Origin: an uncultured virus (IMG/VR IMGVR_UViG_3300033571_022590)
Taxonomy: Duplodnaviria > Heunggongvirae > Uroviricota > Caudoviricetes
DNA: 20,000 nucleotides
IMG/VR virus record: IMGVR_UViG_3300033571_022590
Coordinates: 55,292 to 75,291 of that record
Reading direction: 5' to 3' (one strand)
Shown in pieces: positions 16,338-19,754 of this stretch. The position numbers and the translations under genes were made by a program. Position 1 is the first letter of the stretch. Every line of letters starts with the position of its first letter. The notes under the pieces are model-generated. The model was not told the origin of the DNA. It made no database searches and was given only the letters and a program-made list of their open reading frames with translations.

Positions 16338-16380
16338 TCCGGTTACGAATCCGGAACCACTCTATGATTGTGGTCGATTT
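16338..16380. repeat. Two-hairpin structured element, copy 1 (candidate cis-acting RNA/DNA motif)
   Basis: TCCGGTTACGAATCCGGA ACCAC TCTATGATT GTGGT CGATTT; homologous to 17470-17513. Confidence 0.7.
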
Positions 16381-16387
16381 TAAAATT

Positions 16388-17395
16388 TTACTTCTTGATC
16401 AAGGCCCACTGCTCTCGGCGGATACGATCTGTCACAGCCTTAGGTAGTGGCACATAATCTAGCTCTAGAGCACTCTTGGCACCGTTGTCCCACGACCAGG
16501 CAAAGAACTTGAGCACTTCTTGTGTGGCTTTGACATCCTTGGGTTCACGATACACCAGGATGAATGTGGCACCTGTGATGGGCCAAGCATCAGCACCTTT
16601 TTGATTTACCAAGCTGATGCCCATGCCGGGTGTCTTGAACCAGTCAGCGTCACGGGCAGCCGCGGCAAATGTCTTGTCATCGGGATCCACATACCGGCCA
16701 TCACGATTCTGCATCTTCATATGGGTAAGATTATTTTTCTTGGCATAGGCATATTCCACATAACCAATTGAACCTTTGACACGAGCCACGTTGGCCGCAA
16801 CACCTTCGTTGCCTTTGCCACCCACGGCTGTTGCTGGAATCCATTTGACTGCCGCGCCTTTGCCCATGCGTTCAGCCCAGGGCTTTGACACTTCGTTCAA
16901 GTAGTCGGTAAAGATGAATGTTGTACCTGATCCATCCGCACGATGTATCACAGTGATGGCCTGGTCAGGTAAGGTCCGACCTGGGTTTAATGCGGCAATT
17001 TTTGGGTCGTTCCATTTGGATACGGTTCCAAGGTAAATGTCTGCTAACACTGGGCCTGTGAGCTGTAGTTCGCCTGGTTTGAATCCGTCTAGGTTAATGA
17101 TAGGAACTACACCACCCAGCACTGTGGGAAACTGGATCAGGCCAGCCTGTGCCAGATCTGCCACATTCATAGGAGCATCTGTGGCTCCAAAATGTACTGT
17201 ACCGGCACGGATCTGTTTGATACCGCCCGAGCTACCAATACTCTGATAATTGAGCTTGACTCCGCTGACTTTTTCATAGTCTTTGGACCATTTGGCATAA
17301 ACGGGATATGGGAATGTGGCACCAGCGCCGGTGATTTCTACAGCAGACACTGAAGTCGCTAATACTGTTAATACAGCGGCTAAAAACTTTTTCAT
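16388..17395 (-). CDS. pstS: Phosphate ABC transporter substrate-binding protein PstS
   Basis: Signal peptide; GAGATFPYPVYAKW, NYQSIGSSGGIKQI, FGATDAP, RADGSGTT, GKGNEGV, WPITGATFIL. AAGGAG Shine-Dalgarno. Confidence 0.97.
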   Translation of the reverse strand: MKKFLAAVLTVLATSVSAVEITGAGATFPYPVYAKWSKDYEKVSGVKLNYQSIGSSGGIKQIRAGTVHFGATDAPMNVADLAQAGLIQFPTVLGGVVPIINLDGFKPGELQLTGPVLADIYLGTVSKWNDPKIAALNPGRTLPDQAITVIHRADGSGTTFIFTDYLNEVSKPWAERMGKGAAVKWIPATAVGGKGNEGVAANVARVKGSIGYVEYAYAKKNNLTHMKMQNRDGRYVDPDDKTFAAAARDADWFKTPGMGISLVNQKGADAWPITGATFILVYREPKDVKATQEVLKFFAWSWDNGAKSALELDYVPLPKAVTDRIRREQWALIKK

Positions 17396-17438
17396 TGAAT
17401 CTCCTTTGAATTAATGTGCGATTGCACAACATTACTTA

Positions 17439-17467
17439 ATTACAATTTTGTTACAGTTTTATGACAC
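17439..17467 (-). promoter_or_regulatory. Pho box (PhoB-binding site) upstream of pstS
   Basis: Minus strand: GTGTCAT AAAA CTGTAAC AAAA TTGTAAT, three 7-mers at 11-nt period matching the CTGTCAT-N4 Pho-box repeat. Confidence 0.88.
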
Positions 17468-17469
17468 AG

Positions 17470-17513
17470 TCCGGTTACGGGCTCCGGTGGCACCCAATCA
17501 TTGTGCCCGATTT
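17470..17513. repeat. Two-hairpin structured element, copy 2
   Basis: TCCGGTTACGGGCTCCGGT GGCAC CCAATCATT GTGCC CGATTT. The GT4 stop codon lies in the loop of the second hairpin. Confidence 0.7.
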
Positions 17514-18508
17514 GTTTCGACTAAATTATCTCTAAATATCTGCCAGCAAGCCGCCCAGGTCCAACGACTGCTAGCCTGTTCCACTTGCCTTCTGTCCAGG
17601 GTCATACAGCGTTCCACAGCATGAGCCAGGTTCCAATCCAGGTATCCAGTGACTCCTGATTCCACTATGTCTATAGGTCCTGGCACAGGATAGGCAGCCA
17701 CTGGAGTGCCACAGGCCAAGGCTTCAATGTTGACCACACCAAAGGTGTCCACCCGGCTGGCAAACACAAACACATCGGCCTGAGCATAGTAACTGGCCAG
17801 TTCAAGTCCGGTTTTGGTACCCACAAACTCTACTTCAGGATATCGCCGTTCCAGTTCCCGGCGATAAGGGCCATCACCCACAACAATCTTGTGGCACCAG
17901 GGCATGTCTAGCTCACAGAAATCATCCAGGCCTTTTTCCTTGCTCACACGTCCCACACTCAGCAACACTGGCTTGACATTTGAGCCTGTTCTTAGACTGG
18001 GACTAAAATAAGTTCTATCTACTCCACGAGTCCAGGCCACAAGATCGCCATCAAAGCCATGTGCCTGAAGTTCTTGCCGCATGGTTTCTGTTGTGGTCAG
18101 CACTCGTCCTGAATGCTTGTGAAACCATCGCAAGTAAGCATAGGTCCAGGATTCGGGTATGTAATACAGCTTGTTTAGGAATTCTGGAAACTTGGTATGA
18201 TAACTAGTGTTGTAGGCCCAGTCGTGCCAGTCCATCCACAGTCGTGCCGCTAGTCCGATAGGGCCTTCTGTAGCGATATGTACATAGTCCGGATCAATCT
18301 CGTTGATCTTACGGCCAATCCTCCAGGACCATGAGATTTTAACTTCAGGATAACCCAAAGCATTACAATGAGGGAACTGCCGGGGATCAAGATAAACAAC
18401 ATCATAGCCATCGCCACGAGCCAACGCCTGGATGTTCGTGAAAGTTGTGACCACACCATTGATTTGCTCCGGTAAATTGTCTGTGACAATCAGGATTTTT
18501 TTTGACAT
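17498..18508 (-). CDS. GT4 (GT-B) glycosyltransferase, Agt-like (candidate glycosyl/glucuronosyl-diacylglycerol synthase)
   Basis: ILIVTD...QINGVVTT, YPEVKI, PDYVHIATEGPIGLAAR, TSYHTKFPE, WTRGVD, VGRVSKEK, DTFGVVNIEALACGTPVAAYPVPGP. Adjacent to the PlcP-like gene. Confidence 0.88.
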   Translation of the reverse strand: MSKKILIVTDNLPEQINGVVTTFTNIQALARGDGYDVVYLDPRQFPHCNALGYPEVKISWSWRIGRKINEIDPDYVHIATEGPIGLAARLWMDWHDWAYNTSYHTKFPEFLNKLYYIPESWTYAYLRWFHKHSGRVLTTTETMRQELQAHGFDGDLVAWTRGVDRTYFSPSLRTGSNVKPVLLSVGRVSKEKGLDDFCELDMPWCHKIVVGDGPYRRELERRYPEVEFVGTKTGLELASYYAQADVFVFASRVDTFGVVNIEALACGTPVAAYPVPGPIDIVESGVTGYLDWNLAHAVERCMTLDRRQVEQASSRWTWAACWQIFRDNLVETNRAQ

Positions 18509-18663
18509 TGTGTGACTACCTTGAAACTATCAAATTTGAGCCAGTAGGTGACTGTGGCCTGTGCCCGTAAACATTCTTCTTGGGTGGCAAACTCAATGCT
18601 TGCTCTTCCGGGAATGTCTTGTGGATTGTTGGTGTGTACTGCTATCAGTATCAGCAACCACAT
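18490..18663 (-). CDS. Small hypothetical protein (57 aa, hydrophobic N-terminus, two Cys); absent from the ORF track
   Basis: Translated by hand: MWLLILIAVHTNNPQDIPGRASIEFATQEECLRAQATVTYWLKFDSFKVVTQCQKKS*. AGGAGAAGGACG precedes the ATG. It fills the gap between the two flanking genes and overlaps both. Confidence 0.7.
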   Translation of the reverse strand: MWLLILIAVHTNNPQDIPGRASIEFATQEECLRAQATVTYWLKFDSFKVVTQCQKKS

Positions 18664-19417
18664 CGTCCTTCTCCTTGAGCCAGGTCACTATCTCCCAGGC
18701 TCCGTTGTGATGTTCAACTAGAGCGGTCAATGACTCTACCCAGTCGCCATCGTTCATGTACACCACACCATTTATGGTTTTGATTTCTGCGTGATGTATG
18801 TGTCCACAGATCACGCCATCATAGCCCTTTTTACGACAGTAGGTGGCCAGGTTTACTTCAAACTGGAACACAAAGTCCACGGCCTTTTTGACTCGGTATT
18901 TTAGGAACTTGCTTAACGACCAGTAGCCAAAGCCTAGCCTGTGCCGCAACCAGTTGAATCTGCTGTTGAGATTTAACACGAAATCATACAGTCTGTCGCC
19001 TAAAAAGCTGAGCCAGGGTGTGATTCGTGTAATGCCATCAAATAAATCGCCGTGTGTGACCAGGTAGTGACGTCCGTCCAGGCCAATGTGTTCGGCTTGA
19101 TTGACCACTTCTATCATGCCAAATCCTATGCCATAAGGTATGAGAGGTCGCAAAAACTCATCGTGGTTGCCGGCCACGTAGACCACTCGGGTGCCACGTT
19201 TGGCATGTCCTAGCACACGTCTTACCACATTGGTATGGCTCTGTTTCCAACGCCAGCGATTCTGTTGTATCTTCCAGGCATCAATGATGTCACCCACAAG
19301 ATACAAGGTATCACAGGTGTTGTGTTTGAGAAAGTTGTTGAGCTGTTCAGCCTTGCAGTCCTTGGTACCAAGGTGTACGTCGCTGATAAAAATAGAACGA
19401 TAGGTACGGTCTGCCAT
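18593..19417 (-). CDS. plcP: Calcineurin-like metallophosphoesterase, PlcP-like phospholipase C (family often annotated UDP-2,3-diacylglucosamine hydrolase)
   Basis: DVHLG, LVGDIID, GNHDE, THGD, GVICGHIHHA, NDGDWVES, plus the PlcP-type insert WLSFLGDRLYD...RHRLGFGYWSLS. Pho box upstream and Agt-like GT downstream. Confidence 0.8.
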   Translation of the reverse strand: MADRTYRSIFISDVHLGTKDCKAEQLNNFLKHNTCDTLYLVGDIIDAWKIQQNRWRWKQSHTNVVRRVLGHAKRGTRVVYVAGNHDEFLRPLIPYGIGFGMIEVVNQAEHIGLDGRHYLVTHGDLFDGITRITPWLSFLGDRLYDFVLNLNSRFNWLRHRLGFGYWSLSKFLKYRVKKAVDFVFQFEVNLATYCRKKGYDGVICGHIHHAEIKTINGVVYMNDGDWVESLTALVEHHNGAWEIVTWLKEKDDVVADTDSSTHQQSTRHSRKSKH

Positions 19418-19439
19418 ACATGTATTTACAGATCAGTGT

Positions 19440-19468
19440 GTTACAGTGTTATGACAATTTTATCACAG
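19440..19468 (-). promoter_or_regulatory. Pho box upstream of the plcP-like gene
   Basis: Minus strand: CTGTGAT AAAA TTGTCAT AACA CTGTAAC (11-nt period). Overlaps the last codons of the upstream ORF. Confidence 0.85.
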
Positions 19469-19754
19469 CCAAGAGTGCTTCGTTGGCATCCCAAAACGCC
19501 CAATACCAGCGTTGATGTGTGTCGTTGTCCAGGAATATGGGTTCGGCTTGGTAGCCTAGATCTCGAATATCGTTGTCCATGGCTTCCCAGGTTGACCACG
19601 CAAAGCCACGCTGACCCACTCTGCGATTGCGGTCCACGGGATCAACTACCAGCACCGACGCAGGTGGATTGTCATAGTAACGCTGTTCTTGTTTGTTGCG
19701 TTCGTAGTAGGGAATGTGGCGATCAAGCCAGGTGGGCCATGATACAGCTTGCAT
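19449..19754 (-). CDS. Hypothetical phage protein (possible distant member of the small-protein family)
   Basis: 101-aa ORF ending WYWAFWDANEALLAVIKLS; ATG abuts the upstream TGA. Confidence 0.7.
   Translation of the reverse strand: MQAVSWPTWLDRHIPYYERNKQEQRYYDNPPASVLVVDPVDRNRRVGQRGFAWSTWEAMDNDIRDLGYQAEPIFLDNDTHQRWYWAFWDANEALLAVIKLS

Follow-up and report, generated by a model that had tools for sequence, protein, structure and literature searches.

A candidate late-phase phosphorus-salvage module in a jumbo phage, with Pho-type boxes ahead of late-promoter words and a structured RNA motif

Results

A predicted lipid-remodelling module at the end of a viral record

The last 20,000 nucleotides (nt) of a 75-kb record of an uncultured virus (G000; IMG/VR IMGVR_UViG_3300033571_022590, positions 55,292 to 75,291; hereafter the window) carry co-oriented genes for a PlcP-type metallophosphoesterase, a conserved small open reading frame (ORF), an Agt-type glycosyltransferase (GT) of family GT4 and the phosphate-binding protein PstS, with Pho-type boxes upstream of plcP and of pstS (Table 1). 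We propose, with a probability of roughly 0.6, that these elements form a conditional late-phase phosphorus-salvage module of a jumbo phage. Its components differ in strength: the exchange of phospholipid for glycolipid by PlcP and Agt, taken alone, is highly probable judging from homology; host PhoB is quite likely the reader of the predicted boxes; and the odds that PhoB works directly with a phage late sigma factor are slightly better than even. The four ORFs, which a preliminary description of this DNA had delimited, are all intact and keep their limits. In a scan of 18 proteins of the window, Pfam and NCBIfam identified the three larger products as calcineurin-like phosphoesterase, GT4 glycosyltransferase and PstS, the last of these above its curated cut-off.

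The phosphoesterase had been read as PlcP-like, and its sequence argues for that assignment over LpxH. It is 55% identical over 243 amino acids (aa) to the protein of the P. aeruginosa plcP-agt1 locus, 47% to an S. meliloti homologue and 23% over 120 aa to E. coli LpxH, the PlcP references being homologues of other strains picked by locus context instead of the type-strain proteins, and the P. aeruginosa locus being identified from gene order together with PMC8528852 (here and below, papers are cited for the accessible portions of their text). The metallophosphoesterase motifs D-x-H, GDxxD, GNH(D/E), H and GHxH are all present, and their ten residues (D13, H15, D43, D46, N84, H85, D86, H122, H206 and H208) are invariant in 67 of 67 distinct viral homologues. 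Where E. coli LpxH has GNRD, the window protein has GNHD, and we take His in place of the LpxH Arg to be diagnostic for PlcP. Scores against LpxH families are far too low (45.9 bits for a cut-off of 134; 36.3 for one of 190), and a quick tree with a single LpxH outgroup sets LpxH on a very long branch outside the PlcP proteins. The predicted structure, with a predicted local distance difference test (pLDDT) value of 73, matches no group but LpxH and general phosphoesterases and does not discriminate between PlcP and LpxH. In databases the protein carries the label LpxH.

The glycosyltransferase is 42% identical to the P. aeruginosa Agt1 orthologue, the sole Agt reference aligned, and its residues G18, G82, G85, H104, T160, R161, R187, K192, D254, T255, F256, G257, E262 and W318 match residues of the SAR11 enzyme GTcp whose mutation disabled that enzyme (PMC8231724). 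The Agt/GTcp group of GT4 is marked by a His104-Asp256 dyad, T162/R163/W320 and two uridine-diphosphate (UDP)-sugar motifs (PMC8231724); the window protein has H104, D254, T160, R161 and W318, its motif 1 ends in G instead of N, and its motif 2 differs at three variable positions. The earlier designation as an Agt-type GT4 enzyme is thus upheld at the level of sequence. In a tree of these glycosyltransferases, 17 phage rows fall on one side with a support of 99, forming a phage clade of their own. PstS, likewise as predicted, scores 421.8 bits against a curated family cut-off of 339 and has a hydrophobic leader (residues 4-22).

All genes of the set are under purifying selection, the small ORF included, with ratios of non-synonymous to synonymous substitution rates (dN/dS) of about 0.05-0.07 for plcP and pstS and about 0.17 for agt (first 150 codons). 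The small ORF constrains the plcP tail that overlaps it, and this tail is missing in relatives without the small ORF. Its product belongs to no Pfam or NCBIfam family, and gave a weak PHROG match and unnamed Atlas clusters only.

Pho-type boxes stand at fixed distances from late-promoter words

Both boxes of the preliminary description proved real: the window contains four two-unit Pho matches with at most one mismatch, all inside these boxes, while 200 shuffles gave a mean of 0.59 and never four. Each consists of 7-bp direct repeats with an 11-bp period that match the published consensus beyond chance. On a simple half-site score built on the Pho consensus (a published form is given in PMC8528852), 23 of the 65 distinct regions upstream of viral plcP and 7 of 7 upstream of pstS reached at least 13 out of 14, as against 0 of 532 other upstream regions of the same loci.

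The boxes are followed by the word TAAATA or TAAGTA. In the complete 337-kb genome of a relative (G002), TAAATA is enriched 19-fold and TAAGTA 14.5-fold ahead of 406 ORFs, and this genome also has 16 plain sigma70 promoters; in G000 itself, TAAATA precedes baseplate wedge, virion and late-sigma genes. The word corresponds to the late word of T4 and to a motif that has been proposed for phage CBB. As in gp55-type late transcription, a T4 TATAAATA-like word is enriched before structural genes and a gp55-like sigma is present, with only the last six letters of the T4-like word conserved; the major capsid gene gp23 of G002 and of a second relative (G003, 321 kb) has no late word directly upstream. 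Given these late-type promoter words, the genes are most likely active late in infection rather than via an ordinary host sigma70 Pho promoter. Among 564 late words in G002, G003 and a 236-kb record (G001, 68% complete), only five are in phase with a Pho pair, each of them ahead of plcP or pstS, and 30 shifted controls yielded two matches in all. The gene phoH occurs in five of five phage records examined, and no in-phase Pho box precedes it in G001-G003.

We then compared 95 distinct phage boxes found ahead of plcP, of pstS or of the RNA motif described below; these are from related loci, and the counts are not independent events. In 94, TAA(A/G)TA follows: 64 times at 11 nt, 15 times at 0 and 13 times at 21-22, offset 0 meaning that a third Pho unit lies in the spacer. 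In the closest bacterial family, a box could be scored in 20 of 21 pstS promoters, and every one of these 20 has TANNNT 10 nt beyond the box; in E. coli phoA, phoB and pstS the -10 element is also 10 nt past the box (CATAAT for phoB). This classical PhoB-sigma70 layout is found in only one of the 95 phage boxes. When TAAATA is numbered -11 to -6 as in T4, the box takes the same position as in bacteria, and transcription would start on the plcP ATG or, where the promoter precedes the RNA motif, on the first bases of that RNA. In the window, plcP has TAAATA 5 nt ahead of its ATG and no Shine-Dalgarno sequence, predicting a leaderless mRNA. No strong sigma70 promoter or terminator that would explain the locus was found. 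The spacing between box and late word suggests, on sequence grounds, that host PhoB gates a phage late sigma.

The candidate sigma (G000:C1:3027-3935; L001) has 302 aa, compared with 185 in T4 gp55, to which it is 29% identical over 114 aa; it has a large insertion near its N-terminus, and its own gene is preceded by TAAATA. A single-sequence fold of the protein, which has ~115 extra residues, reached a pLDDT of only 39. Neither the co-activator gp33 nor the clamp gp45 was detected in four phage records (G001-G004), diverged forms being possible, while both were found in the control G005; the same absence is reported for phage CBB (PMC5259590). In T4, gp33 and gp45 occupy the upstream promoter region (PMC7892883, PMC2988020). 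T4 late transcription and its Rak2-GAP32-CBB version share with the phage a gp55-like sigma and the TAAATA core (PMC7892883, PMC2988020, PMC5259590), the CBB motif having been proposed, and not experimentally mapped for this group, in PMC5259590. Whereas T4 late promoters have no upstream sequence element according to these sources, a conserved activator-type box stands upstream of a few late promoters of the phage.

A structured RNA motif accompanies the phosphate genes

Absent from the preliminary description is a structured RNA after each gene block: an element of 42-43 nt lies over the agt stop codon and just past the pstS stop codon. Both of its hairpins show compensatory changes in 23 aligned copies. 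In a 13-pair model, derived from the tested sequences themselves, 97% of cells pair and 10 pairs have changed on both sides, and the model scored above all 500 shuffles and all slid controls. Two loop pairs are nearly invariant, which leaves the pseudoknot tentative. Single-sequence folding of the two window copies was not significant (z 0.34 and -1.66), so that the evidence for the fold is its covariation.

The model finds only four copies in G001-G003, all at the plcP/agt/pstS module. A pattern scan of viral contigs returned more than 119 stretches, of which 80 were fetched and 72 were distinct; for 50 of these 72 copies, plcP, agt, pstS, the gene of the small protein (small ORF) or that of a phosphate-selective porin lies within 1.5 kb, with 36 directly after one of these genes and 15 directly before plcP. 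Nine copies have hsp20 as their sole such neighbour, and 13 have none. In metagenome contigs, 42 of 62 copies have a neighbour from the phosphate set. In the bacterial family, at least seven of 61 genomes contain the motif too, with only 82 candidates scored in each. Of eight bacterial copies, three lie in tRNA arrays and two look free-standing with a terminator, one of the latter behind a Pho-like unit; the phosphate genes tested adjoin none of the eight. The motif can lie 5′ or 3′ of genes or stand by itself, and this variety seems to suit a small RNA or stability element better than a riboswitch.

None of the Rfam 15 covariance models matched the motif. The COG2908 RNA motif (RF02939) is of similar length (45 positions), and COG2908, after which it is named, is the group of LpxH/PlcP-like proteins. 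Its consensus and fold are different, and it gave no match at the motif in five records carrying it; in 50 plcP-carrying records RF02939 was also without a match, but so were the controls. Twister, pistol and HDV-like ribozymes and c-di-GMP-II riboswitches do not fit in the order of their elements and gave no Rfam match. No published description of the motif was found by name, supplements lying outside the search.

Several further placements were observed. In six viral loci (L259, L266, L267, L273, L281 and L246) the RNA stands just before hsp20, in several of them after a regA-type translational regulator and a late word without a Pho box, and three bacterial copies (L441, L444 and L445) stand directly before tRNA genes in tRNA arrays. 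One phage locus (L232:3-263) has a permuted transfer-messenger RNA upstream of a pstS-RNA-plcP-agt cluster.

Linkage of the genes, viral source and probable host

At least 126 viral stretches carry the phosphoesterase, and the best 80 were kept for locus counts. Within the fetched DNA, some of it short, the glycosyltransferase accompanies plcP in 52 of these 80 loci, the small ORF in 33 and pstS in seven, and the complete relative G002 has plcP-agt without pstS. The idea of one cassette therefore has to be modified: the shared control logic stands, but the set comprises two promoted units, with pstS behind its own promoter and plcP, agt and pstS only loosely linked. Phosphate-selective porin O/P genes with the RNA motif directly after them are present in six phages (L229, L234, L253, L285, L287 and L288) and extend the viral phosphate regulon.

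The viral origin of the DNA was confirmed by a gp47-like nuclease, the late sigma factor and baseplate wedge and hub proteins among the 32 proteins of the record that were scanned. The incomplete G001 carries a 100% identical cassette, and no capsid gene was found in its 68%. In G002 and G003, gp23 is present and 61-65% identical to that of Vibrio phage 2.275.O, PA5oct, Paride, GAP32 and CBB, which places the source among the jumbo phages of the GAP32/PA5oct type. The reported lack of phoBR is borne out by five of five phage records (four at ≥90% completeness), in which no receiver or OmpR/PhoB DNA-binding domain was found; that of pstCAB holds for the 18 window proteins scanned, a genome-wide search not having been made.

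Among 400 gammaproteobacterial-class genomes, the best PstS match is 66% identical (G158), and in a tree the window PstS groups with the G158 family with full support. In a quick tree, the PlcP of a named Burkholderiales plasmid nests among proteins of that family. From this grouping and nesting we reasonably infer a Burkholderiales-type donor and host for the phage. Of 201 genomes in the closest bacterial family, 131 have a plcP-like gene, a tally that takes in one unpublished genome (G554); a pattern scan of bacterial genomes returned only four distant PlcP homologues (46-50%).

Table 1 Features of the module in the window
Feature	Position	Strand	Remarks
PlcP-type metallophosphoesterase (plcP-like)	18593..19417	-	274 aa; C-terminal ~25 residues, encoded where the small ORF overlaps, modelled as disordered
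Small ORF	18490..18663	-	57-aa conserved phage protein; hydrophobic N-terminus, two conserved cysteines, own Shine-Dalgarno sequence; purifying selection
Agt-type GT4 glycosyltransferase (agt-like)	17498..18508	-	336 aa
PstS phosphate-binding protein	16388..17395	-	335 aa; hydrophobic N-terminal leader
Pho-type box 1, upstream of plcP	19440..19468	-	Three 7-bp units, 11-bp period
Late-promoter word TAAATA	19423..19428	-	11 nt past the last Pho unit, 5 nt ahead of the plcP ATG
Pho-type box 2, upstream of pstS	17439..17467	-	Three 7-bp units, 11-bp period
Late-promoter word TAAGTA	17433..17438	-	11 nt past the second Pho unit; third unit occupies the spacer
Structured RNA motif, copy 1	17470..17512	-	Two hairpins, possible loop pairings; covers the agt stop codon
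Structured RNA motif, copy 2	16338..16379	-	8 nt past the pstS stop codon

Elsewhere in the record, a 5065-aa ORF follows the baseplate wedge gene (G000:C1:15348-30545), and a long protein (window:40-2415; G000:C1:36000-57700) that repeats W-x-W-x-P-x-P / YxFGNQW units and matches nothing in Pfam or PHROG sits in a region rich in sugar-modifying and radical-SAM-like genes. A MoxR-like AAA ATPase gene (window:7420-8712) and a vWA/metallopeptidase gene (DUF2201; window:13770-14855), each behind a sigma70-type promoter, are ~5 kb apart with small ORFs between them. Short ORFs with similar F-x-L-(K/R)-W/F tails (window:10795-13705 and 19449-19754) apparently belong to a dispersed phage gene family.

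Discussion

In the model that we favour, phosphorylated PhoB of a phosphate-starved host would bind the two boxes and switch on promoters whose -10 word, to judge from promoter geometry, is read by the gp55-like late sigma. PlcP would then cut phosphorylated head groups off host phospholipids and Agt would add sugar to the resulting diacylglycerol, so that the bilayer survives until lysis, both activities being predicted from homology and intact catalytic residues, while PstS would, again by homology, feed the host Pst transporter. A phospholipase C frees phosphorylated head groups and not free phosphate; the original proposal that phosphate is released from the host membrane thus needs amending, in that host enzymes must finish the job and would recycle head-group phosphorus into nucleotides for phage DNA synthesis. 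The RNA at the end of each block might stabilise the transcripts or be processed out. Because plcP is already found in 131 of 201 genomes in the candidate host family, the phage's version may ensure that the pathway continues after host transcription by sigma70 is displaced. In its most specific form, the model has phosphorylated PhoB directly activating RNA polymerase with the gp55-like sigma without known gp33/gp45, firing only when infection is late and phosphate is short, and governing a regulon of plcP, agt, pstS and porin together with a phosphate-linked RNA shared with bacteria; this version is tentative, its chances lying somewhat below even.

A number of observations weigh against this model. 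At the level of regulation, the fifth base of the half-site is A in 162 of 190 phage half-sites, whereas the boxes of the closest bacterial family nearly all have C there, which makes another reader of the box, or another host, possible. The T4 base A(-12) is not conserved ahead of TAAATA, leaving the promoter register uncertain, and 23 of 65 viral plcP upstream regions are without the late word, 22 of these being without a box as well. The usual contact of PhoB is with sigma region 4. A -35 element is missing from T4 late promoters (PMC7892883, PMC2988020), predicted Pho boxes were unreliable for some genes of cyanophage S-PM2d (PMC10976474), and in the literature we found no precedent for PhoB activating a gp55-type promoter. 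As to the enzymes, the best structural matches of the PlcP model are LpxH chains, with no solved PlcP among the matches, and the phage copy may be redundant with host plcP. Position 254 of the glycosyltransferase, Asp in the window, is Glu in 27 of 42 viral enzymes (Asp in 15) and in 9 of 13 readable bacterial ones adjoining plcP; an Asp-to-Glu change at this dyad position cut SAR11 GTcp activity by more than 90% (PMC8231724), and the split may mark different sugar donors or activities.

The promoter data might also be explained by the same enzymes under PhoB control being transcribed by ordinary sigma70 from a weak -10 element overlapping TAA(A/G)TA, with the late sigma independently using the same site. 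Activation by PhoB via sigma70 is the established mechanism, the E. coli geometry fits, and the phage keeps separate strong sigma70 promoters, so that host holoenzyme is used during infection. We nonetheless hold this dual promoter to be unlikely, as TANNNT stands at 10 nt in one of 95 phage boxes and the A and T that sigma70 needs in two of 95, compared with 20 of 20 in the bacterial family. Neither do we give much credence to a reader other than PhoB, whether encoded by the phage or the host, or to PhoB serving as a repressor or timer at late promoters. The half-site base preference unlike that of bacterial boxes and the third unit of pstS promoters, filling the spacer up to the word (offset 0 in 15 of 95), would suit such readings; but the 11-bp period and consensus are those of the published Pho box, the regulated genes are phosphate-starvation genes, and the five phage records lack a PhoB-like domain, unrelated DNA-binding proteins still being possible.

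What the enzymes achieve may be questioned as well. Membrane remodelling could serve a change of envelope that lowers secondary infection or grazing loss, delays lysis or helps a starved host to survive, instead of supplying phosphorus for phage DNA: late timing suits envelope functions, a review cites unpublished data according to which lipid remodelling alters phage adsorption, and plcP often occurs without agt or pstS. Yet pstS and phosphate-selective porins share the same boxes and RNA, making phosphorus supply the common theme, and we consider an envelope function rather improbable. That the enzymes belong functionally to the nearby sugar-modification region and act on other substrates, such as a lipid A precursor, lipopolysaccharide or virion glycans, or nucleotides, would accord with the LpxH label of the databases and with a genome rich in sugar-modifying genes; it is scarcely probable in view of the low LpxH score (45.9 bits, cut-off 134) and of PlcP/Agt identity, gene order and motifs that fit the characterised pathway.

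The conditional salvage module resembles known systems in its parts. Bacterial PlcP-Agt lipid remodelling is well described (PMC4796936, PMC9239053, PMC8528852, PMC8231724, PMC13691135), and the bacterial operons (P. aeruginosa PA3219-PA3218; SAR11 HTCC7211; M. trichosporium OB3b) have the plcP-agt order and an upstream Pho box as here. The phage proteins are 42-55% identical to the bacterial ones, with catalytic and substrate residues kept, but the phage differs in its own clade, the inserted 57-aa ORF, the late-type word and the structured RNA. Phage pstS and PhoB-bound phage promoters were also known (PMC3037559, PMC10976474): cyanophage Pho genes (pstS of P-SSM2, PhoB-bound promoters of S-PM2d; pstS/phoA) stand behind boxes for host PhoB, with pstS lacking pstCAB, as in the window. 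In contrast to the cyanophages, the module belongs to a jumbo phage of a heterotroph and includes lipid enzymes, and its fixed box-to-late-word spacing is not described in the accessible text of those two papers.

Among cultured phages, Pelagibacter phage Mosig EXVC030M (MT647606; 48%) and Synechococcus phage S-SRM01 (36%) have a plcP-like gene, annotated LpxH and without agt beside it. In Mosig this gene and one for a phosphate ABC-transporter binding protein point away from each other, and TAAATA lies 5 nt ahead of the ATG of the plcP-like gene; the accessible text of the Mosig announcement does not mention it. TTAAC-type repeats lie between the two Mosig genes (L090:3894-5910). We found no literature description of a phage plcP-agt pair or of a Pho box tied to a late promoter, most subscription journals and supplements being outside the search. 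The module thus represents a known pathway in a new viral form, and no description was found of its regulatory design or of its RNA.

By our own rough estimate, ~0.7 million phosphorus atoms go into a 340-kb genome, while the phospholipids of a small cell number a few million; full conversion would therefore pay for only a handful of genomes; membrane phosphorus would be useful when bursts are small, and not as a large reserve. The promoter geometry bears on whether a host activator can drive a phage late sigma, and on how GAP32/PA5oct-like jumbo phages, with neither gp33 nor gp45 detectable, activate their late genes. The RNA, for its part, is a new candidate among non-coding elements and is linked to phosphate genes. 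If the proposed model is correct, the LpxH label hides a class of auxiliary genes, the plcP-like gene being carried by at least the 126 viral stretches counted here, and a virus would draw phosphorus from the membrane of its host and change membrane chemistry in phosphate-poor waters.

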